Assembly: GCA_018714685.1 (NCBI GenBank)
Contig: DVNC01000021.1
Location: 12,693 to 76,692 of the forward strand
Origin: Candidatus Scatocola faecipullorum
Lineage (GTDB): Bacteria; Pseudomonadota; Alphaproteobacteria; RF32; CAG-239
Direction: 5' to 3'
DNA: 64,000 nt
A model generated the notes under the pieces. That model searched no databases, was not told the DNA's origin, and saw only the letters and a program-made list of their open reading frames with translations. Made by a program: the position numbers and the translations under genes. Positions 7,759 to 36,651 of this stretch are shown piece by piece. The stretch's first letter is position 1, and each line of letters opens with the position of its first letter.

Positions 7759-7762
7759 TATT

Positions 7763-8761
7763 TCACAGCCCTAAAAAGTTTTCACGGCGTTTTTTGGGTT
7801 TGATTACCTTAATTTTCGGTTTTTGAGCCTGCAATGCCCGCCAATCCCAAGGTTTATAGAATTTTCCCTGCCAAAGGCCGTTGCCGTTCAGCTGCGCCTG
7901 TTGCTCATAAGGAACATAGATATCGGTATATTTTGTGTATGCTACAGCCCAACCGGCGTTAACCAATGCGGCACCGAGGTCATATTCGCCAAGTGCGCAG
8001 GTACCGACCATATTGCCTTTTTTATCCTGCTGCATAATCCGACAGTCAAGCGGATTATCGCCTATCCAGCCTTTAAGCCAGAGCGCAGCCTGGCGGCCGC
8101 AGTTGTAAGAACGTCCGGTTTTGTCGGCACAAGTCTGATTGGCTTCCGGCGCGTCAATTCCGTAAAGCTTAAAATAACGTCCCTGAATTTGCAGCGTATC
8201 GCCGTTTATAACCCGGGCAGGGCTGGTGAAAGACGGCAAAGCCTGAGGATTGAATCCCTGATCATTCCGGGCTTGCCCCGCACCGCCGAGAGAACTCATA
8301 AACTGCTGGAAAGCGTTTCCCTGTGCCGGCTGAGAAGGCTGCTGCCGCTGATAAGCATTTTCTCCGATGCCGGTATCAAAATTTTCATCAAGCGCCGGAG
8401 CATACTCGCCGTCATCAAGCATCGGCTGACCGCCGTTTTGCTGCTGAGCCGACATCATTGCCTGCTGCTGGCGGCCGAGAAAAGTCTGCAAACTTTGGCC
8501 AACGCCGCCAATGCCGTTGTTAAAAGCGCCAATGGCATATAAAATGAAGACGATAATTCCGATGACTACCAAAAATGAAGGCAGGCAGCCCATGGCACGC
8601 CATGCCATTTTGGTAAAAATGTAGAGTGCGACCAAACCGATAATCAGTCCGACAAAACCGCCACCCTGCAGAATTAAGTTGCTGCTTTGGGTGCCGCTGC
8701 CGCCGACAAGAATTAAAACCAAAGCGCCAAGACCCAGTAAAAATTTTTTAAGAAAGAGCAT
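7763..8761 (-). CDS. Membrane-anchored, Gln-rich protein with C-terminal staphylococcal-nuclease-like (thermonuclease) domain
   Basis: Two N-terminal TM helices, a Q/G-rich low-complexity linker, then a C-terminal SNase-like block (INGDTLQIQGRYFKLYGIDAPE...GWAVAY). Confidence 0.6.
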   Translation of the reverse strand: MLFLKKFLLGLGALVLILVGGSGTQSSNLILQGGGFVGLIIGLVALYIFTKMAWRAMGCLPSFLVVIGIIVFILYAIGAFNNGIGGVGQSLQTFLGRQQQAMMSAQQQNGGQPMLDDGEYAPALDENFDTGIGENAYQRQQPSQPAQGNAFQQFMSSLGGAGQARNDQGFNPQALPSFTSPARVINGDTLQIQGRYFKLYGIDAPEANQTCADKTGRSYNCGRQAALWLKGWIGDNPLDCRIMQQDKKGNMVGTCALGEYDLGAALVNAGWAVAYTKYTDIYVPYEQQAQLNGNGLWQGKFYKPWDWRALQAQKPKIKVIKPKKRRENFLGL

Positions 8762-9024
8762 CTCTACATTTCCTCTGGTTAAACCTGATGTTTATTAGAA
8801 CACATCTTCTGCAAAAAATCCATTTAATTTTTTATAACGTTTTTTGGTAAAGATATAGTTACCCGTTAAAAAAATTTACCGGCAAACCTGCTTTTTATCC
8901 TTCGTTGATTTTAAGGCCTGTTTTTTGACTCTGAAGCGTCTTTTGCCTCTGTGACGGATGTTTTATCAAAAAAAATGAAATCAGTATCTGTACGGGCAAA
9001 TTTTGAACAGTGTTTTTTTGTCTT

Positions 9025-9052
9025 GTAAAAAAAGGGCAGAAAACTGCCCTTT
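9025..9052 (-). terminator. Rho-independent terminator downstream of parB
   Basis: Stem aaagggcag / ctgcccttt with an AAAA loop. On the minus strand it is followed by a T-run. Lies 35 nt past the parB stop. Confidence 0.5.
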
Positions 9053-9088
9053 ATAAATATTTTTATTGAAAAATCAATAATTTATCAA

Positions 9089-10120
9089 TCAATCAATTAC
9101 TTTAATCGTAAATTTTCCCCCGGAAGTCGCGGATGAATCCTCCGATACCGGCATCTGATTGGTGCCGAGGTTAGGTTTTTCACCCTGACGTTTCTGCTCG
9201 AGGATATCAATAATCATATCCAGCTCGGCAGGAGAGGCGTATTGCAAAACAACTTTTCCGCCGCCTTGTTTGCTGGGAGAGATTTTGATGCGCAGTCCGA
9301 GATTCTTATTCAGGTCTTTTTCAATATCGGCCAAATCAGAATCTTTTTCTTTTTTCGGCGCTGCTTCTTTGGGGCCGCTTTTTTGTTTGGCGACCAATTC
9401 TTCAACTTGCCGCACGCTCAGGTCTTTGGCAACAATTTGCTGTGCCAAAGTTTCGGCATTTTCCAAGCCGACCAAAGCCCGGGCATGCCCTGCACTCAAT
9501 TTGCCTTCTTTTACCAGTTGCTGAACGCTTTCCGGAAGATTAAGCAAACGCAGGGTATTTGCAATATGGCTGCGCGATTTGCCGATGATCTGCGACAAAG
9601 CTTCCTGTGTGTGGGAAAATTCGTCAATCAGACGCTGCAAACCTTCAGCCTCTTCAATGGCCGAGAGATTTTCTCTCAATAAGTTTTCCACCAAGGCCAC
9701 TTCAAGGACTTCCTTATCGGAAAGATCCTTTTCAATGACGGGAACTTTATCAAGCCCGGCCAGTTTGGATGCCCGCCAACGGCGTTCACCCGCAATAATT
9801 TCAAAACCTATTCCGTCTCGGCGAACCAACAGCGGCTGCAATACACCTTTTTCTTTGATTGATTCAGCCAGAGACTGCAAAGCTTCCTGATCAAATTCCG
9901 TCCGGGGCTGAAATTTGCCCGGTTTAATCAAATCAATATCAACCAAATTGGCGGTTGCCGGAGCAGGGGCGAGGGAACTTAAATCTTCAACATTGTCCAA
10001 ATCCAAATCATCTTCCCCGAGAAGAGCGCCCAATCCGCGACCGAGACTTTTGCGTTTGTGATTGTGGCTGTCGGCGGAATCGCTGTTATTCAACATTTTA
10101 TCGATTTCATTTTCTAACAT
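9089..10120 (-). CDS. parB: Chromosome partitioning protein ParB
   Basis: ParB/Spo0J motif GERRWRA, HTH region, and synteny directly after parA. Confidence 0.9.
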   Translation of the reverse strand: MLENEIDKMLNNSDSADSHNHKRKSLGRGLGALLGEDDLDLDNVEDLSSLAPAPATANLVDIDLIKPGKFQPRTEFDQEALQSLAESIKEKGVLQPLLVRRDGIGFEIIAGERRWRASKLAGLDKVPVIEKDLSDKEVLEVALVENLLRENLSAIEEAEGLQRLIDEFSHTQEALSQIIGKSRSHIANTLRLLNLPESVQQLVKEGKLSAGHARALVGLENAETLAQQIVAKDLSVRQVEELVAKQKSGPKEAAPKKEKDSDLADIEKDLNKNLGLRIKISPSKQGGGKVVLQYASPAELDMIIDILEQKRQGEKPNLGTNQMPVSEDSSATSGGKFTIKVID

Positions 10121-10893
10121 GCCAACAATTCCTTCTCTCTTTTCAGAACTTCACCGGTCAGGCTGATATAGGCCTGAGAGCCCGGACATTTAAAATCATA
10201 AATCAAAACAGGCTTGCCGTGCGACGGCGCTTCGGAAATGCGGACATTCCGCGGAATGACGGTTTGATATACCTTTTTGCCGAAAAAGTTGCGCACGTCA
10301 TCTTCAACCATCTGGGTCAGATTGTTACGTTTGTCATACATTGTGAGGACAACACCCTGCAATTCAAGCTTCGGATTAAATTTCTTTTTAATCTGGTTGA
10401 TGTTGCGAATTAAATCGGTGATACCTTCAAGCGCCAGAAATTCACATTGCAGCGGAACGATTACGGCGTCGGCAGCAACTAACGCATTGATTGTTACCAG
10501 GCTCAAAGAAGGCGGACAGTCAATCAAAATATAATCGTAATTGACGGCATCTTTAAATAAAGCTTTTTTCAATGCAAATTCACGGTTTTCAATTTCAACC
10601 AGCTCAACTTCGGCTCCGGCCAAATCAGGTGACGACGGAACCAGAGAAAAATTCGGAATCTCCGTCCAGACAACGGCTTCAGAGATTCTTTTTTCTCCGA
10701 GCAGCACTTCATAGGAAGAGGCCATTCTTCCGCTTTTATTAATACCCATGGAAGTTGTCGCATTTCCCTGCGGATCCAGGTCAACGACCAGAACTTTCTT
10801 TCCGGCAGCAGCCATGGCTGTTGCAACATTGACCGTTGTTGTCGTTTTTCCAACACCGCCTTTGCGGTTGGCAATGGCAATAATTCTTGGCAT
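10114..10893 (-). CDS. parA: Chromosome partitioning ATPase ParA
   Basis: Deviant Walker A KGGVGKTTT. Sits in the soj/parA position next to rsmG. Confidence 0.95.
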   Translation of the reverse strand: MPRIIAIANRKGGVGKTTTTVNVATAMAAAGKKVLVVDLDPQGNATTSMGINKSGRMASSYEVLLGEKRISEAVVWTEIPNFSLVPSSPDLAGAEVELVEIENREFALKKALFKDAVNYDYILIDCPPSLSLVTINALVAADAVIVPLQCEFLALEGITDLIRNINQIKKKFNPKLELQGVVLTMYDKRNNLTQMVEDDVRNFFGKKVYQTVIPRNVRISEAPSHGKPVLIYDFKCPGSQAYISLTGEVLKREKELLAC

Positions 10894-11519
10894 TATTTAA
10901 CTCCCTTGCGTTTATTTAAATGTGTAATGATTAAGATGACGCCTTCGTCGCTTTGGCTGCTGGGAATAATCCGGCAGTCAAAATCCCAGTGTTTTTTTGC
11001 TTCAGCGATTTCTTCGGCATGTTTTTTTCCTTTGGGAAAAATACATACTGTATGAGACCCGCAAAAACGACTGGCATAATTTAACAGATTATCAAGAGCC
11101 GTCAGGGCGCGTGATGTAATAACATCAACTTTTTCGGCCGGCAGTTCTTCGATTCTCTTATTATAAATATTAACCTTGGTTCCGGTTAACTCAGCCACGT
11201 GCTTTAAATACAGTGTCTTTTTTCCAATGCTTTCTATCAGACTAACTTTTAAATACGGTGTTTTTTCCATCGCCATTATAGCCAGAACCATTCCGGGAAA
11301 TCCGGCTCCAGAGCCCAGATCGTATAAGGTTCTCGCATTAGAGGGAATGTACTGAAAAAGCTGCACTGAATCGAGAAAATGACGATTCCAGCCGTCGGCT
11401 AAAGATGATGAACTGACCAAATTAAACTTATTCTGCCATTCATTTAAAGAGGCTTCATAAGTTTTTAATTTGTCAATTGTTTCACGTGAAACATCATATG
11501 TGGTCGTATTTTTTTCCAT
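10893..11519 (-). CDS. rsmG: 16S rRNA m7G527 methyltransferase RsmG (GidB)
   Basis: SAM-binding DLGSGAGFPG motif, 208 aa, in the gidA-gidB-parA-parB neighbourhood. Carries a parS site near its 5' end. Confidence 0.9.
   Translation of the reverse strand: MEKNTTTYDVSRETIDKLKTYEASLNEWQNKFNLVSSSSLADGWNRHFLDSVQLFQYIPSNARTLYDLGSGAGFPGMVLAIMAMEKTPYLKVSLIESIGKKTLYLKHVAELTGTKVNIYNKRIEELPAEKVDVITSRALTALDNLLNYASRFCGSHTVCIFPKGKKHAEEIAEAKKHWDFDCRIIPSSQSDEGVILIITHLNKRKGVK
11478..11493. promoter_or_regulatory. parS: parS centromere site (perfect TGTTTCACGTGAAACA)
   Basis: Exact 16-bp palindrome matching the canonical parS consensus, inside the 5' end of rsmG. Confidence 0.8.
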
Positions 11520-11757
11520 AAGAAATTTATATAATTTTTACAAAAAATTTAAAACAATAAAAAGGCAGTTATAAACACCTTATTTAAATATTTTAAAATA
11601 TATTTTAAATTCAACAAATTAGAACGACAGCCTGACTCAATATATCAAGATTTTTATTTCTTTTAAATACACTGTTTGGTTATAAAAAAAACAAAAAGGC
11701 TGATAAATCTATCTGCCTGAGGAGCGGAATATTATTAAAACAGATTAAACGACAATG

Positions 11758-12384
11758 TTATTCATTTCTGATGTTCAGAAGTTGATAAATATCACAGTCA
11801 CATTTGACCTCAAAATAAAGGCGCAGATTTTCAGCACAGCTAAAATGGGTTGTTAAAAATTCTTCCTGTACCGGATACCTTTCGGCCAAAGATCGGCAAC
11901 GATACTGTAAAGAACAGTTTTTACCCCGATCATTCATCATATCTGCCAATTGCAGAAGTTTATCGTAATCATCATATTCAATGTCTGAAATATAATTTTT
12001 GCAATGTAAGATATCCTGTCGTGCCTGAGGATATAACTCAGGATTAAAATCTTTATTCAGAAAACAATGTGTAACCGAGATGCGGCCGATTTCGTCCCAA
12101 CCTTGCTTTTTCATTAACTGATAGCCGGTCCAGCCATGAAAAACATTTTCACTTTTTTCATCTTTAATGTGACCGCAATCGTGCAGCAATCCTGACAGAT
12201 AAGCCCTTTCCGAGTTTAAATACGGTGTTTGAGAAGCTATTTTAGCCGCAATGTCGGCTACTGAAAAACAATGAGCCCGAAACTCTTTTTCCCATTCCGG
12301 ACGAAAAGGGAAGGGACTGCGGTTGCGTTCGGCAATTACATATTCAAAGAAGGCTAAGGCTTCTTGTTTTGACGGCAAAGACAT
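11758..12384 (-). CDS. HDIG-domain metal-dependent phosphohydrolase (paralog 1)
   Basis: HD-superfamily motifs H...GLLHDCGHIKDE...H...D. About 208 aa. Paralogous to 12387-13010 and 46733-47470. Confidence 0.6.
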   Translation of the reverse strand: MSLPSKQEALAFFEYVIAERNRSPFPFRPEWEKEFRAHCFSVADIAAKIASQTPYLNSERAYLSGLLHDCGHIKDEKSENVFHGWTGYQLMKKQGWDEIGRISVTHCFLNKDFNPELYPQARQDILHCKNYISDIEYDDYDKLLQLADMMNDRGKNCSLQYRCRSLAERYPVQEEFLTTHFSCAENLRLYFEVKCDCDIYQLLNIRNE

Positions 12385-12386
12385 GC

Positions 12387-13010
12387 TTAATCCACTCCCA
12401 AAAGCTTATAAATATCGCAGCAGCATCTTTTATCAAAGTACTTTTTTAGTTTTAATGCTTCGCGATATTTCTTTTTTACCAGCAAAGGAGGAATTTTGTA
12501 ATTGTTGCGGATGTTAAAAATTCTTTGCTTAATATTCAGCGTTACGCCGACGGATAAACGGTCACATAATTGTATCAAACGGTCATAATCATCAAAAGGA
12601 ACTTCCTGCAACAGTTTTTTACATTTGCGCATTTCAGACGGATTATAGCCGGCATATTCCTTTAAGTTAAGTTCCTGTTCATAAAAAGTGTGGGTCAGGG
12701 ATATTCTGGCCAATTCATCATATCCCAGTTTGCGTAAATATTTATACCCCTCCAGTCCATGGAATTTATCGGACATTTCATCGTTATAAACCAGTTTGCC
12801 GAAATCATGAAATAACCCCATAATATAGGCTTTTTCACCGTCTATCTCAGGCAATCGGGAAGCAATCATCTGAGCGGCTACCGCGACCATGGCGGCGTGA
12901 ATGCGTTCTCCTTTAGAACGTCCCAGTTCGAAACGCGATGATTCCGCACAGCGTTTACGCATGGTTTCTTCATAAAGTTTTAAAGCTTGCTGCATGGTCG
13001 GCATCGTCAT
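12387..13010 (-). CDS. HDIG-domain metal-dependent phosphohydrolase (paralog 2)
   Basis: GLFHDFGKLV HD motif. Architecture and length match the adjacent paralog. Confidence 0.6.
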   Translation of the reverse strand: MTMPTMQQALKLYEETMRKRCAESSRFELGRSKGERIHAAMVAVAAQMIASRLPEIDGEKAYIMGLFHDFGKLVYNDEMSDKFHGLEGYKYLRKLGYDELARISLTHTFYEQELNLKEYAGYNPSEMRKCKKLLQEVPFDDYDRLIQLCDRLSVGVTLNIKQRIFNIRNNYKIPPLLVKKKYREALKLKKYFDKRCCCDIYKLLGVD

Positions 13011-13015
13011 GGGTT

Positions 13016-14869
13016 TTACCTTTTTACATAACTGAGCACGGCGGTAACGGCGGCAGGCGTCACTCCGGGTATTCGTGATGCTTCTCCGATTGTCGCCGGG
13101 CGGACTTTAGACAGCTTTTGTACCATCTCCCGCGATAAACCGCCGATGAGAGCATAATCAATGTCTTCTTTGATTTTAAGTTTTTCGTCTTTTTGAAATA
13201 CATCAATATCTGCCTGTTGGCGTTTCAGATAACCGGCATATTTGGCTTCAATTTCGATTGCTTCGTAAACGTCATCGGGCATTGTCTGCAATTCCGGCCA
13301 TATTTGCGTTATTGTTTCACGTGAAACACCGTCATAAGACATGACGTTAAAAGCGCTTCTTTTCGTTCCGTCACGTTTCGTCTTTACGCCGAATTTATCC
13401 AACTCGTTCGGGTTGACAATCAATTTTTCACAAAGCTGACGATAATGATTTATCTGCTCATATTTGGCTTTAAATACAGTGTATCTATTTTTCCCGACGC
13501 AACCGATTTGATAGCCCAGTTCAGTTAAACGCGCATCGGCATTATCCGCACGCAACAACAGGCGATATTCGGAGCGGGAAGTAAACATACGATAAGGTTC
13601 GTCAACGCCCTTGGTAATCAAATCGTCAATCATTACGCCGATATAGGCCTGACTGCGATCAATCACAAATTCACGCCCTTTTCCTTCGGCATACAGCGCT
13701 GCATTAACACCGGCCAACAGTCCTTGCGCGGCAGCTTCTTCATAACCGGTCGTTCCGTTTATCTGTCCTGCCAGGTAAAGACCGGGAATCTTTTTAACCG
13801 CAAGTGTTCGGTTGAGTTCCTGCGGATCAACAAAGTCATATTCAATTGCATAAGCGTAACGGAGAATTTCAACATCTTCCAGCCCTTCAATCGTATGAAT
13901 AAACTGTTCTTGAACATCTGCGGGAAGAGACGTTGAAATGCCGTTCGGATAAACAACATCAGTATTCAGACCTTCGGGTTCCAAAAAAATCTGATGACTG
14001 GTGCGGTCGGCAAATTTTACCAGTTTGTCTTCAATACTGGGACAATAGCGCGGGCCGATGCCGGTAATTAAACCGGAAAACAAAGCACATTTGGAAAAAT
14101 TATCGCGAATAATCCGATGCGTGTTTTCATTGGTATGAGTAATAAAACACTGTATCTGCGGATTGGTAATTTTTTCCGTCAGATAAGAAAAAGGCTGCGG
14201 CGGGTTATCACCGTCTTGAGAAGACAATTTTTCCCAATGAATTGTTTTGCCGTTCAGACGGGCAGGGGTACCGGTTTTTAAACGCCCGACATTCAGCCCT
14301 TTCTGTTTTAAATACGGCGTTATACCCGTACAAGTGACATCACCGATACGTCCGCCGACGGAAGTTTCATGACCGACAAACATCACGCCGTTCAAAAAAG
14401 TTCCGGAAGTAAGAACAACCGCTTTTGCGGTTATTTGTGTTCCGTCGGCCAAAATAACACCGGATATTTTTACATCATCAAAAAGCAAGCCTTCGACCGG
14501 AGCTTCTATCAGCGTCAGGCCGGATTGTTCCCGCAGCGCGGCAAGCATATATTTTTTATAAAGTTCGCGGTCAGCCTGAGCACGCGGGCCGCGGACAGCC
14601 GGACCTTTAGACTGGTTTAACATACGAAACTGTATGCCTGCCTTATCAATAACCCGTCCCATCAAACCGTCCAGCGCATCAATTTCACGTACAAGATGCC
14701 CTTTACCCAGACCGCCGATGGCCGGATTACATGACATTTCGCCTATTGTGGCAATTTTATGGGTGATCAAAGCCGTTTTGGCTCCGATACGGGCTGCTGC
14801 GGCACAAGCTTCACAACCGGCATGGCCGCCGCCGACAACAATTACATCAAACTCCTGATCCGTTTTCAT
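13016..14869 (-). CDS. mnmG: tRNA uridine-5-carboxymethylaminomethyl modification enzyme MnmG (GidA)
   Basis: FAD-binding [14 protein letters not shown], conserved GRLKTGTP and [10 protein letters not shown] blocks, 617 aa. Confidence 0.97.
13313..13328. promoter_or_regulatory. parS: parS centromere site (perfect TGTTTCACGTGAAACA)
   Basis: Second exact copy of the 16-bp parS palindrome, inside mnmG. Confidence 0.8.
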
Positions 14870-14972
14870 TTATTCAGCCTTAACATTATTTGTTCCGAAG
14901 ACGGGACAAACTTCTACTTATCGGATACTAGCATAAAAAACGTTAGCAAGCCGTTAATAGCTTCTCCCATTT

Positions 14973-14998
14973 AAAAGCGTAAAACCTGCCGCTGAAGG
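14973..14998. terminator. Putative hairpin terminator between mnmG upstream region and the hypothetical gene
   Basis: aaaacctgcc gctgaa gggcaggtttt stem-loop flanked by A/T runs. Confidence 0.35.
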
Positions 14999-15024
14999 GC
15001 AGGTTTTATAAAACGGAAGAAACT

Positions 15025-15408
15025 TCAGATTACATTGTTTCTGATGCAGAACTGCCAGAAAGTATAAATTTCACTTCGTTCTATAATATAAGGGCAGTAA
15101 ACACAGGCAGAAAAAATATCCAGGCTCCAAAGATAATTTTTATAGGGTTTCTGTTCGCCGGCATGCTGACGAAGGTAAGAAATCAGACCACTAACGGCGT
15201 GGCCCAACGCTTCCTGCTCACTGCGAAGCTTTTCATCTTCGTAGTAATAAGAGATTCCCAATTCCTCCGATTTTCTTACTAACTTGGCAAATTTTTCGTG
15301 GATTGCCTGATAATGCCCTTCCATCGGCTGTTGAAGGGCCATCTCGGTTAAAACACAGACATGCTTCTTAATCAAAAATTCAAGTCCGTCAGAATAATTT
15401 TTTTTCAT
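15025..15408 (-). CDS. Hypothetical protein (127 aa)
   Basis: ORF between mnmG and mnmE with no motif I recognise. Confidence 0.35.
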   Translation of the reverse strand: MKKNYSDGLEFLIKKHVCVLTEMALQQPMEGHYQAIHEKFAKLVRKSEELGISYYYEDEKLRSEQEALGHAVSGLISYLRQHAGEQKPYKNYLWSLDIFSACVYCPYIIERSEIYTFWQFCIRNNVI

Positions 15409-15504
15409 AATGACAAGTTTTTAGCGTTAATAATAAATGATTAAGCCGATATTACTCAATCGGGCTTTAGAAAGCAAGCATAATTTGTCAAAAAATCCGG
15501 CTAA

Positions 15505-16848
15505 TTATTTACCGATACAAAATGACCCGAAAATTTTATCGAGAATGTCATCTACCTCAATCCGTCCGGTGATTTTCCCCAAAGCGCGGGCCGCCAGGCG
15601 AACATCTTCGGCAGCCAATTCAATTTCTTTTCGCAGTGTAAAAGTTTCCAACGCTTCTACAGTTTCTTTCAAAGCTTCACGGTAACGGGCACGGGTTATC
15701 AGCAAATTTGAATTAGAGGTAAAGCGGTTTTCAATCCGTTCGGTAATGGCCTGAAGCAGCTGCTCCAATCCCTGACGAGGTTTAGCGGCTATGGTCAGAC
15801 AGCCTTCCTGTCGCAGCGAAGAAATCCTTTCTGCCGACAAGCGGTCGGTTTTATTGGCAACCAAAAGCATTTTACCGGAAATTGTTTTTTTCAGATTATC
15901 AAAGATATGAACAGTGTCTTGTGATGCATCGAACAAACATATCACAAGGTCGGCTTCGTTAATTTTATGGTAAGCAATTTCTATGCCTTTCTTTTCAATG
16001 GCATCTTCTACTTCACGCAGACCGGCAGTGTCGGTAAACATAACCGGATAACCTTTCAAATCCAGGTGAACATCAACCGCATCGCGGGTGGTTCCGGCAA
16101 TATCGGAAACGATGGCCGCTTCACGATTAACAACAGCATTCAGCAAACTTGATTTACCGGCATTCGGCGGGCCGACAATAACAACGCGAAAACCTTCGCG
16201 CAGCCTTTCGCCGATAGTGTCGCCGGACAGATGTGCTTTAATTGCTTCCTTGAGTTTAAATACAGTGTCTTCAAGTTTAAATACGGTGTCTTCCGGAATT
16301 TCTTCGTCAGGAAAATCAATATAAGCTTCCAGATGAGCCATCACGGTTAAAAGTTCTTCCCGCCAGCTTTCATAAAGGTTTTTTAAGCCGCCTTCCATCT
16401 GCCGCATGGCATATTTCTGCTGTTCAGCGGTTTCGGCATCTATCAGATCGGCTAATCCCTCGGCCTGAGTCAAATCCATTTTGCCGTTGTAAAAAGCCCG
16501 TTTGGAATATTCTCCGGGTTCAGCCATGCGGAAACCTTCCAACCGTGACAATGATGAAAGGACTCCGGAAATTACGGCTTTGGAGCCGTGAATCTGCAAT
16601 TCAACGATATCTTCCCCGGTGAACGAATGAGGCGCCTTAAAATACAGCAAAAGACACTTATCCAGTACCTGTTTCTCGGGAACAGACAACAAATCGGTAA
16701 AATAGGCATAACGGGGTTTGATGCCCGAAGGCGAAAGGCGGGTCATTTGCCCAATAATCTGAAAAGCCCGATCGCCTGATATGCGGATGACGGCGACGCC
16801 CGATTTGCCGAAAACGGTTGAGAGTGCATAAATGGTCTGATTATCCAT
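15505..16848 (-). CDS. mnmE: tRNA modification GTPase MnmE (TrmE)
   Basis: G-domain motifs GPPNAGKSSLLN, DTAGLR, NKTD, and the C-terminal ...CIGK. Contains an in-frame EDTVFKL-EDTVFKL duplication. Confidence 0.95.
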   Translation of the reverse strand: MDNQTIYALSTVFGKSGVAVIRISGDRAFQIIGQMTRLSPSGIKPRYAYFTDLLSVPEKQVLDKCLLLYFKAPHSFTGEDIVELQIHGSKAVISGVLSSLSRLEGFRMAEPGEYSKRAFYNGKMDLTQAEGLADLIDAETAEQQKYAMRQMEGGLKNLYESWREELLTVMAHLEAYIDFPDEEIPEDTVFKLEDTVFKLKEAIKAHLSGDTIGERLREGFRVVIVGPPNAGKSSLLNAVVNREAAIVSDIAGTTRDAVDVHLDLKGYPVMFTDTAGLREVEDAIEKKGIEIAYHKINEADLVICLFDASQDTVHIFDNLKKTISGKMLLVANKTDRLSAERISSLRQEGCLTIAAKPRQGLEQLLQAITERIENRFTSNSNLLITRARYREALKETVEALETFTLRKEIELAAEDVRLAARALGKITGRIEVDDILDKIFGSFCIGK

Positions 16849-17057
16849 TTTATATTCCTGTCTGTAACTTAAAACCGGCTTAAGTATAATCGGAAAAGGT
16901 AAAAATACGATAAAAAAACACTAATTTAAATAAAGGCCTAAATTCGGCTTTCAGAGAGGTTTTTTACTTTTGCTTAAGTGTTTCCCTATAAAGTAGGTAA
17001 AATTCGTTTGTGCGAGCTTCCTGCGGACTCGTTATTTTTCTACCGAAGGTGTTAATT

Positions 17058-17756
17058 ATGGATGAATGTTCTAAAAAACTGATTATCTGGGACTTTGACG
17101 GCGTGATGGCCGACACGGAAAAACTCTGGCTGGAAAACCGCCGGCAAATGATTAACGAAAAATTCGGACTTAACTGGGATTTTGATACAACCAACAAACA
17201 TTTGGGCGGAATGAGCGATAAAACCAAACGTCTGAATATGGATAAGCTGGGATTGACAACCGATGACGAATTCTGGAAAGAGAGCATGGCGCGCGATATG
17301 GCCGTAATGGCAAAGGGTTTTGAAGCAACTCCCGGAACAGAAGATATTCTCAACTGTCGAGAAATCAAACAATGTGTAGCAACCGGCGGAATTTATTCCA
17401 AAAGCGTCGAAAAGCTGAAAACAATCGGTTTTTGGGGAAAATACATTAATGATACAAATCTGTTCACTGCCGATATGGTAGAACACGGAAAACCGGAACC
17501 GGAGCTGTTTCTGCTGGCAGCGGCGAAAATGGGAGAGCTTCCCGAAACCTGCGTGGTGATAGAAGATTCTCTGGCCGGAATGACTGCCGGACTGCGTGCA
17601 GGAATGACGGTCATTGCCTATATCGGTTGTGAGATGAATAACAATCCGGAAAACATTAAAAATATCCGCGCTTTGGGAGTTAAACACATTTTCAGCACCA
17701 TGGCCGAAATTAAAGATTTTTTAGGAATATGCAAATATACGTTTGACAAAATATAG
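17058..17756 (+). CDS. HAD-superfamily hydrolase (beta-phosphoglucomutase/phosphatase-like)
   Basis: DxD motif IIWDFDGVMADTE and later HAD motifs (…GKPEPE…, IEDSLAGM). ATG at 17058 is preceded by a GAAGGTG Shine-Dalgarno sequence. The track ORF starts earlier, at 17010. Confidence 0.7.
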   Translation: MDECSKKLIIWDFDGVMADTEKLWLENRRQMINEKFGLNWDFDTTNKHLGGMSDKTKRLNMDKLGLTTDDEFWKESMARDMAVMAKGFEATPGTEDILNCREIKQCVATGGIYSKSVEKLKTIGFWGKYINDTNLFTADMVEHGKPEPELFLLAAAKMGELPETCVVIEDSLAGMTAGLRAGMTVIAYIGCEMNNNPENIKNIRALGVKHIFSTMAEIKDFLGICKYTFDKI

Positions 17757-17806
17757 CGAAAAAGGCATACTTATTCAAAATTTTATCATTTTTAAATTTT
17801 TATGTT

Positions 17807-18223
17807 ATGAAACCTGAAAAATTTATTAATCTGCTGGTCTTCTTGGTTGCGACCGGCATGTTGGTTTGGGGTATCTGCGGCAATGCCGGCTGGAAGCTCA
17901 TGGGTGCAAATCTTTTAACCGCAGTTTTCTTTATGTTTCTTTATCGTAAAGACGACAATCATCCCGGCGTTTTTTCCTTTGCCGTCAGGTATGCGGCACT
18001 GGCTTTGGCTTTTGCCAATGCAAGGATTATGACCGGAATTGCGCACGGAAATCTGCTGTTGCTGTTTGTGTTGGCTGCGGTGTATTGCCTGATTGACGCT
18101 TGTTTGCCCGTTTTGGCTTATCAATGCGGTTTTCGGTGCAGTTCCAAACCGGTTATTCCCGACAGAACGGTCATTCTGTTTGTGTTAAGCACTTTTTTAT
18201 TTGCCGCTTTAGACAAGCCGTAG
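17807..18223 (+). CDS. Hypothetical polytopic membrane protein (138 aa)
   Basis: Four hydrophobic segments and no recognisable motif. Confidence 0.35.
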   Translation: MKPEKFINLLVFLVATGMLVWGICGNAGWKLMGANLLTAVFFMFLYRKDDNHPGVFSFAVRYAALALAFANARIMTGIAHGNLLLLFVLAAVYCLIDACLPVLAYQCGFRCSSKPVIPDRTVILFVLSTFLFAALDKP

Positions 18224-18240
18224 ATACAATAATTAAACGT

Positions 18241-18268
18241 AAACCCCGGATAAAATCCGGGGTTTTGT
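18241..18268. terminator. Bidirectional rho-independent terminator (between membrane protein gene and rho)
   Basis: aaaccccgga taaaa tccggggtttt perfect hairpin with flanking T/A runs. Confidence 0.6.
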
Positions 18269-18269
18269 T

Positions 18270-19553
18270 TTAGCTGTTCATGGTATTGAAGAAATCCTGA
18301 TTGTCTTTGCTTTGTTTGAGCTTTTCAAGCAAAAACTCCATACCGTCCGTCATTCCCATCTGCATCAGCACACGGCGCAGAACCCACATTTTGGACAAGG
18401 TGGCCTTGTCAACCAGCAGTTCTTCCTTACGGGTGCCGGAGCGGGTAATATCAATCGTCGGGAAGAGGCGTTTATCGGTCAGTTTTCGATCAAGAATGAT
18501 TTCTGAGTTGCCGGTTCCTTTGAATTCTTCAAAGATAACTTCGTCCATGCGGGAACCGGTATCAATCAGAGCCGTGGCGATAATGGTCAGCGATCCGCCT
18601 TCTTCAACATTGCGGGCTGCACCGAGAATGCGTTTCGGCCGCTGGAGAGCATTTGCATCGACACCGCCGGTCAAAACCTTGCCGGAAGAAGGGATTACCG
18701 TATTGTAAGCGCGACCCAAACGGGTAATCGAATCGAGCAGAATGACAACGTCTTTTTTATTTTCAACCAGGCGTTTGGCTTTTTCAATCACCATTTCAGC
18801 TACCTGAACATGGCGCGAAGCCGGTTCATCAAAGGTAGAAGAAATTACTTCACCTTTCACCGAACGAGTCATATCGGTTACTTCCTCGGGACGTTCGTCA
18901 ATCAAAAGCACCATCAGATAGGCTTCAGGATGATTGGCGGCAATCGCATGGGCAATATTCTGCAGCATTACGGTTTTACCTGTGCGCGGCGGGGCAACAA
19001 TCAGCCCGCGCTGGCCTTTGCCCTGCGGTGAAATCAAATCAATCACGCGGCAGGTATAGTCTTTGTCGCCGCAGATAATATCAAAATTAAGCTTTTCCGT
19101 CGGGTAAAGCGGCGTCAGATTGTCAAAATTAACCCTAAGTTTTGATTTTTCGGGATCGTCAAAATTAATGGCGTTAATCTTGGTTAAGGCAAAATAACGT
19201 TCATTGTCTTTCGGACCGCGAATTTCGCCTTCAACAGTATCGCCGGTGCGCAGGCCAAATTTTTTAACCTGGGAAGGCGAAACATATATGTCATCAGGGC
19301 CGGCAAGATAGTTTGATTCGGCGGAACGGAGAAAACCGAAACCGTCCGGCATGACTTCAATTGTGCCTTCGCCGTAGATAATTTTATCGTCATCGGCGAG
19401 TTTTTTTAGAATAGCAAACATCAAATCCTGTTTGCGCATGGATGAAGCATCTTCAATCCCTAAATCTTCAGCCTGAGTTAACAACTCGGTAGGAGACTTT
19501 TGTTTGAGCTCTTTTAAATTCATGGGAACCTTAAATATGTAGGATATTGTCAA
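18270..19553 (-). CDS. rho: Transcription termination factor Rho
   Basis: N-terminal RNA-binding domain, Walker [13 protein letters not shown], 427 aa, very high conservation. Confidence 0.97.
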
Positions 19554-20033
19554 AACAGAAATAAGAACTATATGATATAGTATAAGTTTATATATGCTTT
19601 AAATCGAAAACTGTCAAATAAAGATTGGATATTTTTTCAGGGCAGATTTATGCACATTCCGACCTGCCAATTTAAAATTTAAAAAATTATGTAGTAGATT
19701 GTATATGCCTGTGACTCTTGTGGATAAATTTTGAGCCACAGAGTTATCCAGAAGTTAACAGTTTGTTAATAAAGCTGTTAACCGAAAATAAACAATCGTT
19801 AACGAATCGTTAAAACTTTTCCGGACTCAAAATGTAAACTGCAAAATTAAGTTTTTGTTAATAACTTTTTTATCCACCGGCCGGGGATGAAAAAGCTGCT
19901 TGTGCGTAAGTCAGTATATTAGATTTTACTTTATGGTGATTACTTTGTATAAATTGGAAAAAGGGCTCAGTTATACACAGGAAAAGCCTGATTTGTTGAT
20001 AAGTGAGTCAAACCTTTGATTTGAGGATTTTTT
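19554..20033. promoter_or_regulatory. Candidate chromosomal replication origin (oriC) and rho leader region
   Basis: 480-bp AT-rich intergenic region. Perfect DnaA box at 19719-19727 (tgtggataa = TTATCCACA). One-mismatch boxes at 19744-19752 (ttatccaga) and 19870-19878 (ttatccacc). Three TTAA-N7-TTAA (CtrA-box-like) motifs at 19755-19769, 19799-19813 and 19847-19861. Flanked by rho and coaE-dnaQ, as around the alphaproteobacterial Cori. Confidence 0.55.
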
Positions 20034-23807: not shown

Positions 23808-24836
23808 ATGGTCAAAAGTGTTGAAAACAAGCCGGTTGAGGTTTCAAAAAGCCAGATTGCCGCCACAGCCAAAAAAGCGATGCTCAGAATTGTTTTCTGG
23901 GTGCTTTTCCTGGGGATTTTATACGGATTATGGCTGAATCCGCAGATTATTACCAATATGGTCAAGTTTATTTCAATGCAGACGGCCACAGAGGAATCCC
24001 AAGAAGAAAATACGGTCCAGGAAGATGAATTTTATCGGCGGATGAATGTGCTGCAAAACCAGATTAACCAGCTGCAAAATCAAATCAGCTCTTTGCCGGA
24101 GGGAAGCAGTGCTACGGTTGATTTAAGCCGTTTTGACAGCAAATTGGAGGCGATAGAAAAGCAAAATCTCAACGTGATTGATTCCAAGGCGGACGTGGCA
24201 ACGGTTTTGGGGATTATTACCCGGTTGGACAAGATTGAAGAGCGGTTGGATACTTTGGCCAAAATCAGCGATGACGGTGCTTTGGTTCTGACGGCGACGA
24301 TGATGGTTAAGGAAAGTTCGGAAAACGGCACCAATTTTGCTTATGAGGCGGAAATTTTGCAGCAACTGGCCAAAAACGATACGGCCATTCAAGGCGATGT
24401 GGAAACGATTTCGCGTTATGCGCGGGAGGGCGTCAAGTCGCAGAACAGTCTGATTAACGAGTTTAAGAAAATTTACCGTCGTTTGGCAAAAGTTCAAACC
24501 AAGCAGGATTTGGAAGGCAAGAACTGGAAAGAGGTTTTGAATATTAAATTTAACGAAGTGGTCAAAGTCAAAAGAGTCAATGACGTTCTTTCTCCGCAGA
24601 ACGAAGCCGAAAACGAAAACAATTTCAAAAAAATAAACGAAGAAGTTAAAAACGGAAATCTGCAGCAGGCTTTGGACGGGCTGCACCAGCTTGACAGTTC
24701 ATTTATTGTCAACGACCCGGCTATGCAAAAGTGGATGGCAGAGGTTCAGGCACGCATTAATTTCAATCAGGCGATAGCCAATATTTCGGCACATTCACTG
24801 GCTTTGATGAAAGTGAACAGCATTAAAAGCAATTAA
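23808..24836 (+). CDS. Hypothetical membrane-anchored coiled-coil protein (342 aa)
   Basis: One N-terminal TM helix, then long heptad-like Q/E/K-rich sequence. No catalytic motif. Confidence 0.4.
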   Translation: MVKSVENKPVEVSKSQIAATAKKAMLRIVFWVLFLGILYGLWLNPQIITNMVKFISMQTATEESQEENTVQEDEFYRRMNVLQNQINQLQNQISSLPEGSSATVDLSRFDSKLEAIEKQNLNVIDSKADVATVLGIITRLDKIEERLDTLAKISDDGALVLTATMMVKESSENGTNFAYEAEILQQLAKNDTAIQGDVETISRYAREGVKSQNSLINEFKKIYRRLAKVQTKQDLEGKNWKEVLNIKFNEVVKVKRVNDVLSPQNEAENENNFKKINEEVKNGNLQQALDGLHQLDSSFIVNDPAMQKWMAEVQARINFNQAIANISAHSLALMKVNSIKSN

Positions 24837-24850
24837 CTTGCGAGGCAGGC

Positions 24851-26248
24851 ATGACTAACGAAGAATTAAAGAAAATCTGGTCAGAAAAATTTGCGGTTGT
24901 TCCGCAGGTTTTGGAAAATATGAAACAGGTTCAGGCGGCGGCAACGGCATTTAACACCAATGTAGACGCAGTGGTTAAAATCAGCGGCGCGAAAATTGCC
25001 GAGCTGGCGGCTGGTTTGGGAATGGATTTGGCCGAGCTGGAAGATGTGCGGCAGACTAAGCTGGATTCAGGCAAAGACGTGGTTAAAGGCATTTTCAAAT
25101 GTTTTACCAAAGGGATTGCCGAAGAATGGCTGACCGAAGACAAACAAGTTTATGACTGGATGGTAAACAATCTGGGGTATGACCGTCTGCAAATGGGCGG
25201 TCAGGGCGGAATTGTGGCCAATGTTCTGGCGGTTACCGGCGTCAACAAAGTCTATGCCCATGCCAATTCTCTGCCGAAGTTACAGGCCCAACAGTTTTTA
25301 GAATTGGACAATTTGGTTTCTTTTGATGAAAAAGGGGCCGAAAAACCGGCTTATCTGATTAACCGGGAAGTTGACATTCCTTTGATACACTGGATTATCG
25401 AATTTGACCGGAATGATACGGTGCATATCGGCGGCAAAGATTTCAAATGTCCGAAATCGAACCGTTTTATTGCCACGTATGATCCGTTAAATCTGCATTT
25501 GGTTATGGATCGTCATTTTATTGATGCAACCGGCCGCCGCAAAATGGATTATGTGGTTTTATCCGGTTTTCATGCTCTGACGGAACACAACGACGGCGTA
25601 CGCCTGCAGGAAGGCGCTTTACCGATTATTGAAAACTGGAAAAAGCAGGGAGATATCGTTCATTTGGAGATTGCCTCCACGCAGGATATTGCGGTGCGCA
25701 AGTCGATTATCAAATCGATTGCCCCGATTGTGGATTCAATCGGCATTAACGAGCGTGAAGCTATTGACATTTTGGAGGTTTCCGGATGTGAAAAACAGGC
25801 GGAAGCCTGCAATGCACGGACAAACAGCGTTAATATGTTTGAAGCATTGATGTTGATAAAGAAAATTATCAAAGCGCCGCGCATTCAACTGCATATGTTC
25901 GGTTTGTATATGACGCTGCAGGATAAAGGCTTTAAAATTACACCGGAAGCCAATTTGCGCGGAATGATGCTGGCTGCGACCGTTGCCGCCAGCAAAGCCG
26001 GCACCGGAAACATTAACAAAAAAGAAAATCTGCTGTGGGCTCACGGCGAGCAGGTTTCTGATGTGGGATTAAAAGAATTGTCTGATTTGGCTAACCATTT
26101 GCACAAACCGGAGTTAACGGAAACCGGCATTACCGAGGTTGACGGTTTTGATTTGATAGCCCTGCCGACTATTTTGGTAGAAAAACCGCTGACGCTGGTA
26201 GGCATGGGTGATACGATTTCATCGCTTTCACTGATAGGTTCAAGGTAA
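24851..26248 (+). CDS. ADP-dependent sugar kinase family protein (ADP-glucokinase/ADP-phosphofructokinase-like, ribokinase superfamily)
   Basis: ADP_PFK_GK-type motifs: NTNVDAV near the N-terminus, MGGQGGIVANVLA, HLEIAS, VDSIGINEREA, and the C-terminal GXGD catalytic motif VGMGDTISS. Confidence 0.65.
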   Translation: MTNEELKKIWSEKFAVVPQVLENMKQVQAAATAFNTNVDAVVKISGAKIAELAAGLGMDLAELEDVRQTKLDSGKDVVKGIFKCFTKGIAEEWLTEDKQVYDWMVNNLGYDRLQMGGQGGIVANVLAVTGVNKVYAHANSLPKLQAQQFLELDNLVSFDEKGAEKPAYLINREVDIPLIHWIIEFDRNDTVHIGGKDFKCPKSNRFIATYDPLNLHLVMDRHFIDATGRRKMDYVVLSGFHALTEHNDGVRLQEGALPIIENWKKQGDIVHLEIASTQDIAVRKSIIKSIAPIVDSIGINEREAIDILEVSGCEKQAEACNARTNSVNMFEALMLIKKIIKAPRIQLHMFGLYMTLQDKGFKITPEANLRGMMLAATVAASKAGTGNINKKENLLWAHGEQVSDVGLKELSDLANHLHKPELTETGITEVDGFDLIALPTILVEKPLTLVGMGDTISSLSLIGSR

Positions 26249-28138: not shown

Positions 28139-28612
28139 ATGATGGCCGGAAAAGTAAATAAAAGAGGACGAATGCCCGACGGGACACCTAATCCGGTGGA
28201 TGTGCATGTCGGAAAGAAAATTTTTACAAGACGGATTGAGCTGGGTTTATCAATGGAGAAACTGGCGTCTTCCGTCGGATTGACCTTTCAGCAGGTTCAG
28301 AAATACGAGAGAGGGATGAACCGGGTCAGCGCCAGCCGTTTGTTTGACTTCAGCAAAGTTTTAGGTGTGCCGATTAATTATTTTTTCTCAGATTTGGATA
28401 ATATGACGGAGCAAAACAGTCATAGTTTGTTCTGCCGTCAGCCGGGGCAAGGGGAAGAAGATGATTTTGATGATCCGCTTTGCCGTGAAGAAAGCCGCGT
28501 TTTGGCAGCCGCTTATTATAAAATTGCCGACCGGAGTATTGCGAAGACTCTGTTTGAGCTGATGAAGGCGCTCAGCCGGCCCAATGAAAGAACGATCGAA
28601 AAGCAAGATTAA
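28139..28612 (+). CDS. XRE-family HTH transcriptional regulator
   Basis: HTH_XRE core ([41 protein letters not shown]) with an acidic C-terminal extension. Confidence 0.7.
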   Translation: [157 protein letters not shown]

Positions 28613-28669: not shown

Positions 28670-29548
28670 TTATTTTTTCTGCAGTTTAGTCTTTTTGGCA
28701 GAAACAAAAGCGTCAACGATATTGCTGACGGTTGTTTCGGGTTTGACCCAGTCAAACCTTGCCGGAAGATGAACGTCCAACTGGTCTTCAGTCCACCAAA
28801 TGGGCAAATCCCAGTCGTTTTCGCCCTGGAAGCCGGGGTTTTTGCATTCGTAAACCAGTTTTTTTCCGAAAGCTTCAAGTTCGGCATCCGAAAGATTTTC
28901 CCAGCCGCAGTTCAGGGCATAAGCCTTCAGAACTTCAATGCGGAAAATGTCCAGATAGGCCTGGATATATTCAGGCGCGGCCTTGAAGATTTTGCAGCGG
29001 ATGTCGTGAATTTTCTGCGAGCCGACGGTGAAGTAGTCGATGATGTCGTTGTAGGTGGTTCCTTCTCCGAGATACTGCATCGGCGTGCGGCAGTCAGCAA
29101 GAATTTGGCGGCCGGTGATTTCTTCGCACATTTCACAGATGCGAATCGCCAGACAGCGGGTGATTTCTTTGCTTTCGATTGAACTCGGAAGCAGTTTCTG
29201 CATGCTGGCACCGGTTTCCTTTTCCCAAAGCTGTATCAGACGTTTGCGGCTGACTTCAACCTTAACGGCCTTGGTGTCGGCGTAATAATTTGCCAAGTCG
29301 TCAAACGTCAGCAAGTCCGGAAACTTCAGAAAAACGCGGAAGCTTTTGTTGCTGGAACAAAATTCCTTTACGGTTCGGCAAAGTTTTTCAATCTTTGTTC
29401 CGGGAAGAGAAGATACCGGTTTGCTCAAAATGTCGGCAAGGGCTGCGGTTCTTTCTTCAACATTCATTTGCTGTAAGTCACTCTTGTCTGCAGTTACAAA
29501 ATCGCTGATGAACTGCATTACTACTGGCAGGGAATTTTTCTTTTCCAT
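28670..29548 (-). CDS. Hypothetical protein (292 aa), no recognisable domain
   Basis: Long clean ORF, Cys-containing, with no signal peptide. Confidence 0.45.
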   Translation of the reverse strand: MEKKNSLPVVMQFISDFVTADKSDLQQMNVEERTAALADILSKPVSSLPGTKIEKLCRTVKEFCSSNKSFRVFLKFPDLLTFDDLANYYADTKAVKVEVSRKRLIQLWEKETGASMQKLLPSSIESKEITRCLAIRICEMCEEITGRQILADCRTPMQYLGEGTTYNDIIDYFTVGSQKIHDIRCKIFKAAPEYIQAYLDIFRIEVLKAYALNCGWENLSDAELEAFGKKLVYECKNPGFQGENDWDLPIWWTEDQLDVHLPARFDWVKPETTVSNIVDAFVSAKKTKLQKK

Positions 29549-35991: not shown

Positions 35992-36159
35992 GATGGAAAA
36001 TCCTAAAAAAATTATCAGGATCTAAATTAAGTCAATCTTATATTTATGCGAAAATCGTATATTACTTATATAAGATTTATATATTCTTATAGGTGTTTAT
36101 TCTGTAATATATATTTTAAAAGTTGTAAATGGTTTTTTTGTGATTTAAAGATTGTGGCA

Positions 36160-36651
36160 ATGTCTGATTTATTCAATTACAAATTTAGAAAGGACAGTAT
36201 TATGAGGGGATTAAATCAATCTGCAGAAAAGACTTCTGTAACTGGAGATTTTACACGTCAGAACTTATTGGAGGAAACAAAAGACGCTTGGAATCAGATA
36301 ACCGGTGCCGTGGGGGATATGTCTGAAGAATATTGGCAGATGAAAAAGCATGGTTATGTAAATCTTGATGATTATCATCATTGTAAAGCTAATTACAAAG
36401 CAACGCAAAGAGGAAAATGGGGAGAGCGTACGGCAGAAGTTTTGGGTAATGAAAAGGAGTTGTTTGATTATTATTTTAATAGGGGATATAAAGGGTTAAG
36501 TAAAGATGCAGCAGAAGCAGACATGAAGCATGATTTAGATATTAATAGAATCGGCCGTGACCGCGCTAAAAATTATAATTATGCCTCTCCACAAGAAGCT
36601 TGTGCTGATTTCCGTGAGTATAATAAAAGTTTCCCCCAAAAATATTGGTGA
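36160..36651 (+). CDS. Serum-amyloid-A (SAA)-like domain protein
   Basis: The C-terminal ~105 aa align by eye to vertebrate SAA. [33 protein letters not shown] matches [55 protein letters not shown] matches GGVWAAEAISDARENIQRFFGHG. The FPQKYW ending matches LPEKY. Visibly AT-rich. The track start at 36046 reads through the promoter. Likely starts are ATG 36160 or ATG 36202 (AGGA Shine-Dalgarno). Confidence 0.5.
   Translation: [163 protein letters not shown]

Follow-up and report, generated by a model that had tools for sequence, protein, structure and literature searches.

The window analysed here, a stretch of 64,000 nucleotides (nt) from Candidatus Scatocola faecipullorum (contig DVNC01000021.1), carries at 24851..26248 on the forward strand a gene for an ADP-dependent sugar kinase. 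An ATG-to-stop open reading frame (ORF) of 465 amino acids (aa) fills exactly this interval, the end coordinate of which takes in the stop codon. According to our analysis, the product belongs to the ADP-dependent sugar kinase family of the ribokinase superfamily, and it is probably a cytoplasmic, glucose-specific ADP-dependent glucokinase (EC 2.7.1.147; D-glucose + ADP -> D-glucose-6-phosphate + AMP). The kinase ATG lies 14 nt past the stop codon of a co-directional 342-aa ORF, and because the gap is so short, co-transcription of the two genes is likely.

24851..26248, + strand: coding sequence of the ADP-dependent sugar kinase, a predicted ADP-dependent glucokinase (ORF, PF04587, PDB matches, AlphaFold/Foldseek, dN/dS)
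24842..24845, + strand: Shine-Dalgarno-like GAGG, 5 nt before the kinase ATG (read off the sequence)
23808..24836, + strand: 342-aa coiled-coil/transmembrane ORF, a conserved left-hand neighbour that is not part of the enzyme (no Pfam or NCBIfam match)

The surroundings are those of bacterial housekeeping genes, as the original prediction had it: rho, coaE, dnaQ, nth, tsaD, aroK, and xerD flank the kinase gene, and parB, parA, rsmG, mnmG, mnmE, rsmA, surA, lptD, ftsK, grpE, and addAB are found in the window as well. The window comes from the chromosome of an alphaproteobacterium, from a region probably close to the origin.

Family membership and fold

The five motifs quoted in the original prediction were all recovered in the translation: NxDxV (within N35-T-N37-V-D39-A-V), GGQGGIVAN (from residue 116), HLEIAS (from 271), VDSIGINExE (as VDSIGINERE, to 303), and GMGD (451-454). 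The profile search proposed along with it gave a strong end-to-end match, in which PF04587 (ADP_PFK_GK) was the sole Pfam family, with 226.3 bits against a gathering cutoff of 27 (E = 7.8e-67), and kinase residues 31-462 aligned to model positions 4-429 of 430. The pfkB family (PF00294) gave no match in the Pfam scan of the kinase, even at E ≤ 1. All significant matches of a sequence search against the PDB were, without exception, ADP-dependent glucokinases (GKs), phosphofructokinases (PFKs), or bifunctional enzymes. They comprised 13 distinct sequences at E ≤ 1e-30, among them 6C8Z (6.7e-54), the ADP-dependent glucokinases (ADP-GKs) of Pyrococcus and Thermococcus (5e-43 to 5e-38), the ADP-dependent phosphofructokinase (ADP-PFK) of P. 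horikoshii (~1e-33), and the bifunctional enzyme of M. jannaschii (4e-31), in addition to mouse ADPGK at 7.4e-10.

An AlphaFold2 model of the kinase, computed from an alignment of 49 sequences, reached a mean predicted confidence (pLDDT) of 95.5 and a predicted template modelling score (pTM) of 0.92. In a Foldseek search against the PDB the model gave template modelling (TM) scores of 0.80-0.89 to 22 chains of ADP-dependent kinases and of only 0.35-0.44 to ribokinase, adenosine kinase, and guanosine kinase. Its two-domain fold, a large Rossmann-like domain with a small alpha/beta lid, superposes on the solved ADP-dependent kinases. The outcome named beforehand as adverse, a best match to the ATP-dependent pfkB/ribokinase family, did not occur, and the proposed membership in the ADP-dependent PFK/GK family is upheld by both the full-length PF04587 match and the structural neighbours. 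The family, its fold, and its reaction are already well known, and no new enzyme class or mechanism is involved.

Residues at the sugar site and the predicted reaction

To place the kinase within the family, we aligned it with 115 full-length family representatives, with AncMsPFK (6C8Z), and with the ADP-GK of P. horikoshii (1L2L). In the structure of AncMsPFK with bound fructose-6-phosphate (F6P), residues N32/N34/D36, R206, and D471 are common to the whole family, whereas the conservation of E90 is limited to glucokinases and bifunctional enzymes and that of K179, N181, and R212 to PFK and bifunctional enzymes (PMC7948494). An alanine scan of AncMsPFK raised the Michaelis constant (KM) for F6P ~1000-fold with K179A and ~200-fold with N181A or R212A, and the position of N181 is occupied by His in TlGK, the specific glucokinase of T. 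litoralis (PMC7948494).

At the specificity sites the kinase has E92 (for E90), L178 (for K179), H180 (for N181), D211 (for R212), and H241. The triad that binds the phosphate of F6P (K179/N181/R212) is thus missing as a whole and is replaced by Leu, His, and Asp. The ADP-GK of P. horikoshii has the same residues as the kinase, save for a Cys in place of Leu178 at the non-conserved K179 position. Of the two diagnostic patterns considered, that of ADP-GKs (Glu at AncMsPFK position 90 and His at 181) is present as E92 and H180, and that of ADP-PFKs and bifunctional enzymes (Lys179, Asn181, Arg212) is absent. The family-wide catalytic residues are all in place, with N35/N37/D39, R205, and G451-M-G-D454 aligning to N32/N34/D36, R206, and D471. 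The corresponding sites in the gene are as follows.

24953..24967, + strand: N35-T-N37-V-D39, the NxNxD sugar-binding and hinge motif (= AncMsPFK N32/N34/D36; alignment to 6C8Z, invariant in 80/80 covering orthologues)
25124..25126, + strand: Glu92 (= AncMsPFK E90), the glucose-binding Glu of GK and bifunctional enzymes (alignment; invariant in alignment A1)
25196..25204, + strand: G116-G117-Q118, the GGQ sugar-contact motif (= G114/G115/Q116; alignment, orthologues)
25382..25390, + strand: L178-I179-H180, specificity positions with Leu for Lys179 and the glucokinase-specific His for Asn181 (L/M and H in all 81 sequences)
25463..25465, + strand: Arg205 (= R206), the family-wide contact to the ADP beta-phosphate (alignment; invariant)
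25481..25483, + strand: Asp211, at the Arg212 position of PFK/bifunctional enzymes, Asp being the residue of glucokinases (alignment; invariant in A1)
25661..25678, + strand: HLEIAS, the HxE motif of the large domain, with a putative role at the metal/nucleotide site (H271 and E273 invariant in 81 sequences)
25748..25759, + strand: N300-E301-R302-E303, an NxxE-type motif inside VDSIGINERE (N300 and E303 invariant)
26201..26212, + strand: G451-M-G-D454, the GxGD motif, with Asp454 equivalent to the catalytic base D471 of AncMsPFK (alignment, orthologues)

These features are not peculiar to a single protein. Across 80 orthologues the specificity positions are invariant, save for L/M at 178 and one N at 241, and the kinase and its 80 orthologues (down to 53% identity) share 77 invariant columns, every catalytic residue among them. 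The GK-type motif is present in 12 of the 12 representatives of the clade to which the kinase belongs, and K together with N, the PFK/bifunctional pattern, in all 31 representatives of that motif class. The family-model scores, by comparison, assign no substrate, because the cutoff of no ADP-GK or ADP-PFK equivalog in NCBIfam was reached (NF010642, 198.7 vs. 387 bits; NF010641, 194.6 vs. 554; TIGR02045 for ADP-PFK, 190.7 vs. 408). NF010642 and NF010641 were built on archaeal sequences, and falling short of them places the kinase outside the curated isofunctional groups and does not indicate a different function.

Based on the GK-type specificity residues and the absence of the F6P triad, we assign the kinase to the glucokinases. 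With neither the Lys nor the Arg that contacts the 6-phosphate of F6P, it should have little or no phosphofructokinase activity. We infer ADP as the phosphate donor from the family membership and from the kept residues of the nucleotide site; glucose as the acceptor, and the physiological role, are proposed by analogy. As in the solved homologues, glucose would enter the cleft that separates the small lid from the large Rossmann-like domain and would be contacted by N35/N37/D39, E92, G116-G117-Q118, and H180, after which the lid would close over it. Asp454 of the GMGD motif would act as the base that deprotonates the 6-OH of glucose, while Arg205 would bind Mg-ADP through its terminal (beta) phosphate, with HLE and NERE acting at the metal/phosphate site. 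Transfer of the beta-phosphate would yield glucose-6-phosphate and AMP, and the recycling of AMP by adenylate kinase would leave the net ATP cost unchanged. In the cell, the enzyme may supply glycolysis or glycogen synthesis with free glucose, such as alpha-glucosidases would release from alpha-glucans of the diet or of internal stores. The likely gain, by extension of proposals made for the archaeal and mammalian enzymes, would be the priming of glycolysis at a low ATP/ADP ratio.

The gene contexts of several relatives agree with such a conversion of glucose to glucose-6-phosphate in connection with alpha-glucan turnover. In the Myxococcota-type member of the clade (loci L087 and L088), a GH31 alpha-glucosidase gene ends 4 nt before the kinase gene on the same strand, and at locus L090 phosphoglucomutase and glucose-6-phosphate isomerase are encoded 1.3-5 kb downstream of it. 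The nearest homologue outside the clade, an archaeal one (L093), is located between a glycogen synthase and a GH57 enzyme. The contexts examined for three other members of the clade (P0122, P0124, and P0129) were uninformative.

A glycogen link within the window itself had also been put forward, on account of the long GlgA-like gene at 42.4 kb (42440..44479, + strand). This link is plausible physiologically, but it finds no support in the genome: the gene lies 16 kb from the kinase among unrelated genes, and its product is unrelated to the synthase of the archaeal cluster. The divergent GlgA-like protein (679 aa, GT5 + GT1) extends ~200 residues beyond canonical GlgA, scores 197 bits with TIGR02095 against a cutoff of 328, and aligns well to solved GlgA only in its C-terminal half; both KWGG, at residue 75, and EPCGLTQ are preserved in it. 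In "Azospirillum sp." metagenome-assembled genomes (MAGs), its NCBI name is "hypothetical protein" or "glycogen/starch synthase." Joint acquisition of the kinase and this gene from an archaeal glycogen cluster was considered and rejected, as the two synthases share only a 39-residue GT-B motif (E = 0.001).

Inheritance, phylogeny and alternative explanations

The exact kinase protein occurs in ~2,700 assembly blocks, and its neighbourhood is always the same. The contigs of the six places listed for it measure 227-373 kb and stem from ENA metagenome assemblies and one JGI metagenome. The MAG "Azospirillum sp. 47_25" has an annotated protein identical to the GlgA-like one of the window, and this protein also occurs on contigs of up to 2.04 Mb. 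The host is a common uncultured gut alphaproteobacterium ("Azospirillum sp. 47_25"-like) with a genome of roughly 2 Mb, and there is no sign of an endosymbiotic or intracellular life. A full-text search of the literature yielded no metabolic study of this gut lineage. The finding that all within-species differences of the gene are synonymous was dropped as evidence, since the loci had been chosen by exact protein identity and the statement is true by construction.

Among the species-representative genomes of GTDB, 177 loci with a relative of the kinase were found, and the best 80 of these 177 (53-81% identity) were examined. Nearly all are assigned to "uncultured Alphaproteobacteria" of the human, chicken, mouse, and ruminant gut, including Ca. 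Scatocola faecigallinarum, Proteobacteria bacterium CAG:495, and Acetobacter sp. 46_36; these relatives probably correspond to the GTDB order RF32. Four loci (L039, L049, L063, and L064) show the alphaproteobacterial nth-tsaD-ORF-kinase synteny under the names Lactobacillaceae bacterium, Bacteroidaceae bacterium, and [Ruminococcus] gnavus, and are probably mis-binned or mislabelled MAG contigs.

The gene order nth (-), tsaD (-), coiled-coil ORF (+), kinase (+) is kept in ~75 of the 80 loci. In half of them (40/80), an extra gene for a protein with HemY/LapB-like tetratricopeptide repeats (TPR) and a zinc ribbon stands between the coiled-coil ORF and the kinase, and the coiled-coil ORF is located beside the kinase, or one HemY/LapB-like gene away from it, in at least 66 of the 80 loci by tblastn and in up to 75 by ORF clustering. 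The intervening gene (for example, at 8513..9940 of locus L015) encodes a membrane protein of 475 aa in which TPR repeats are combined with a LapB-type zinc ribbon at the C terminus. It is absent from the window between 24836 and 24851, which we read as a loss in the species of the window. Together with the coiled-coil ORF it appears to resemble the Mic60-like/HemY-like pair next to tsaD in Alphaproteobacteria. The downstream side of the kinase is variable, with aroK-xerD in 36 of the 80 loci. An attempt at functional inference from the neighbours in the gut lineage (nth, tsaD, the coiled-coil ORF, the HemY/LapB-like TPR protein, aroK, and xerD) was fruitless.

The GC content of the kinase gene (0.459) and its GC at third codon positions (GC3, 0.504) are within 0.4 standard deviations of the mean of the window genes, and its ratio of nonsynonymous to synonymous substitution rates (dN/dS) against the orthologues is 0.06-0.17, with dS near saturation. 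Given the conserved slot, the normal GC content, and a dN/dS of ~0.1, the kinase gene is an old one that has been inherited vertically, and not transferred recently, and is under purifying selection in this gut lineage.

An exhaustive HMMER scan of 1.84 billion representatives of 50%-identity clusters revealed only 607 family members at E ≤ 1e-3, so that the family is a small one. A passage of PMC7948494 already notes its presence in bacteria. In a bootstrapped neighbor-joining (NJ) tree, the group of the kinase (P0121-P0131 and P0136, 41-62% identity) was monophyletic in 100 of 100 replicates, with support of ≤13% for any sister group. Its named members are proteins of Myxococcota (MBP7125981.1), Opitutales (MGF1451899.1), and gut Alphaproteobacteria; judged by these sequences, the clade is bacterial and spans several phyla. 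The nearest outsiders are all of the GK type and include Heimdallarchaeota and Lokiarchaeota proteins, as well as P0134, which sits on a contig with archaeal-type genes. Because a separate motif class takes in a protein from a Bacillota MAG, PF04587 has probably entered bacteria more than once. Our candidate reading of the "H32...Q90...GGT...H181...N212" motif class as the eukaryotic ADPGK type was not confirmed, one of its representatives being a Bacillota MAG protein. One further relative, P0043 (ENA contig, 5.7 kb), was called as a 594-aa protein that joins a kinase (72% identity) to a response-regulator receiver domain (PF00072); this may be a genuine fusion or a product of read-through in gene calling.

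Several observations weigh against the glucokinase assignment. Every trusted cutoff of the NCBIfam ADP-GK and ADP-PFK models was missed (~190-199 vs. 387-554 bits); a full-text literature search yielded no biochemical characterisation of any bacterial PF04587 enzyme; the neighbours in the window and in the 80 related genomes are housekeeping genes without a link to sugar metabolism; the specificity motifs were defined on archaeal enzymes that are ~25-36% identical to the kinase; and the closest solved sequence is the F6P-preferring ancestral 6C8Z, though the two are unlike at exactly the specificity positions. The enzyme may also be promiscuous (mannose, glucosamine, 2-deoxyglucose) or use other donors (GDP, CDP). 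The missed ADP-GK cutoffs would suit a kinase with a main physiological substrate other than glucose, be it a different hexose, an amino sugar, or something similar (mannose, glucosamine, 1,5-anhydroglucitol, or a nucleoside), as would the long branch of the clade, with ≤36% identity to characterised enzymes, the uninformative local neighbour genes, and the promiscuous phosphorylation of 1,5-anhydroglucitol by ADP-GKs (PMC12965863). However, the reported glucose contacts are all kept (D39, E92, G116, G117, Q118, H180, and D454), residue 241 is His as in the ADP-GK of P. horikoshii (Gln elsewhere), and the relatives adjoin an alpha-glucosidase, phosphoglucomutase and glucose-6-phosphate isomerase, or a glycogen synthase with a GH57 enzyme, all of which point to glucose and glucose-6-phosphate. 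We consider a different main substrate improbable, and the original remark that the enzyme could equally act on another sugar or nucleoside was too even-handed, as the specificity residues and the relatives' context favour glucose. An ADP-PFK or a bifunctional PFK/GK, as in Methanosarcinales or Methanococcales, appears less probable still. The top PDB match is the ancestral Methanosarcinales ADP-PFK, NCBI names the relatives "ADP-dependent glucokinase/phosphofructokinase," and the TIGR02045 score is close to that of the GK models (190.7 and 198.7 bits); nevertheless, the residues whose loss raises the KM for F6P 200- to 1000-fold are Leu/His/Asp throughout the clade, unlike the K and N of the 31/31 PFK/bifunctional representatives.

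The original prediction had also called the sugar metabolism possibly host-derived, and an acquisition from a eukaryotic host, or by another recent horizontal transfer, would be in keeping with a family that is mainly archaeal and eukaryotic and with an aberrant-GC gene for a serum-amyloid-A domain 10 kb away, which would point to the uptake of foreign, animal-like genes by this genome. This explanation is very unlikely: mouse ADPGK is the most distant family match, GC and GC3 are ordinary, the nth-tsaD-...-kinase order persists in ~75 of 80 species down to 53% identity, and the fully supported clade takes in other bacterial phyla. With a common gut bacterium showing no sign of endosymbiosis as host, the notion of a host-derived gene does not hold, and a recent horizontal transfer was rejected on composition and synteny alike. 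The most remote of the alternatives is an ordinary ATP-dependent kinase of the pfkB/ribokinase type misread from short motifs, which would have the superfamily fold and a C-terminal GxGD in common with our protein, but which is contradicted by the lack of any pfkB match at E ≤ 1 and by TM scores of 0.35-0.44, as opposed to 0.8-0.89 for the ADP-dependent kinases. A glucose-specific ADP-GK remains the preferred reading.

The window has further features besides the kinase. A parB-parA-rsmG-(two HD-domain genes)-mnmG-mnmE-rho cluster in its first 20,000 nt (1..20000), together with a minimum of the cumulative GC skew at ~16 kb, suggests that the window includes the replication origin region of the chromosome; from this minimum the kinase is ~9 kb away. 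Three paralogous small HD/HDOD proteins are encoded on the reverse strand (11758..12384, 12387..13010, and 46733..47470); two of their genes form the tandem pair that separates rsmG from mnmG. Neither an Rfam nor a tRNA scan of the window found anything. A serum amyloid A domain (PF00277, E = 7e-16), a type of domain characteristic of animals, is present in the 201-aa product of 36046..36651 (+). The composition of this gene departs strongly from that of its surroundings (GC 0.335 vs. a mean of 0.472 for the window genes, z = -3.5; GC3 0.27, z = -3.7), and this suggests that it was acquired horizontally; of six further assemblies of the species that were examined, four (L001, L003, L005, and L006) have a PF00277 gene at the equivalent position. 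A 157-aa helix-turn-helix protein (28139..28612, +) has as its best NCBIfam match the N-terminal part of the male-killing protein Wmk of Wolbachia prophage WO (E = 1.4e-10, far below the cutoff), and it is most likely a generic phage-type XRE repressor. A HemN-like radical-SAM protein (55395..57041, -) carries an N-terminal, endonuclease-like DUF559, an unusual fusion. Four ORFs of 895, 300, 286, and 292 aa (58977..61664, -; 54496..55398, +; 44515..45375, -; and 28670..29548, -) had no Pfam match, and in NCBIfam there was none at E ≤ 1e-5 for the first three and none at E ≤ 0.001 for the last.

Broader meaning and comparison with known systems

Overall, our analysis adds an assignment to the glucokinase subtype, a coherent bacterial clade of several phyla, and the status of a syntenic core gene in abundant gut Alphaproteobacteria, and it rejects an origin from the host. 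A broader scenario, which we offer tentatively and hold to be rather doubtful, is that an entire order-level lineage of abundant, uncultured, small-genome gut Alphaproteobacteria has the ADP-GK as its only hexose kinase; that the enzyme goes back to one ancient transfer from an archaeon, possibly an Asgard-like one, to a bacterium, a transfer that was also the source of the gene in Myxococcota and Verrucomicrobiota; and that an archaeal-style, ADP-primed glycolysis adapts these bacteria to the low energy charge of an anoxic gut. If so, this would be the first bacterial clade of the enzyme class with a defined physiological role. If the glucokinase prediction by itself holds, very common uncultured Alphaproteobacteria of the human and animal gut would enter glycolysis through an ADP-dependent, and not an ATP-dependent, step. 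Metabolic reconstructions that seek only Glk, ROK, or the phosphotransferase system (PTS) would then wrongly conclude that such bacteria cannot use free glucose. The clade would provide the first mesophilic bacterial ADP-glucokinases, which might serve as reagents for ADP- or glucose-coupled assays that now depend on enzymes of hyperthermophiles. It would also be a clean case of an old inter-domain transfer that has turned into a fixed, vertically inherited housekeeping gene.

The closest functional parallel is offered by the ADP-GKs of Thermococcales (P. horikoshii 1L2L/5O0I, P. furiosus 1UA4, and T. litoralis 1GC5/4B8S), which have the same Pfam family and two-domain fold (TM 0.81-0.89), share with the kinase the NND / E / GGQ / xH / R / D / H / GxGD set of residues, and catalyse the reaction predicted for it. 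The K179 site is Leu in our protein and Cys in the enzyme of P. horikoshii (PhGK), and the kinase has GMGD where the Thermococcales enzymes have GIGD or GLGD. They come from hyperthermophilic archaea and are 25-28% identical to the kinase, whereas the latter belongs to a mesophilic gut bacterium and reaches about half of the trusted cutoff of the NCBIfam ADP-GK equivalogs. AncMsPFK (6C8Z/6XIO), the reconstructed ancestor of the Methanosarcinales ADP-PFKs, is the best sequence match among the solved structures (residues 10-462) and shares with the kinase the catalytic Asp, the beta-phosphate Arg, NxNxD, GGQ, and Glu90; it strongly prefers F6P and has K179/N181/R212, in contrast to the L, H, and D of the kinase.

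The archaeal GK-type homologues, the Heimdallarchaeota protein MBN1327952.1 (P0139) and P0134, are the nearest relatives outside the clade (33-36% identity, 222-233 bits) and have the same GK-type motif, with P0134 embedded in a glycogen gene cluster. They belong, however, to another domain of life and are separated from the clade of the kinase by a split with 100% bootstrap support, with sister-group support of ≤13%. Mouse ADPGK (5CCF/5CK7) shares the family and the reaction, the latter as predicted for the kinase, but it is the most distant member found (E = 7.4e-10 over ~110 residues, TM 0.68, 19% identity). At the other extreme, the bacterial homologues named "ADP-dependent glucokinase/phosphofructokinase" (MBP7125981.1, MGF1451899.1, and those of gut MAGs) fall in the same clade with 100% bootstrap support, are 43-81% identical to the kinase, and have the GK-type motif, and the protein of the window is simply one of these NCBI-named homologues. 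Within this clade it is the genomic context that differs: the gene is linked to GH31 in the Myxococcota type and to the housekeeping genes around tsaD in the gut Alphaproteobacteria.

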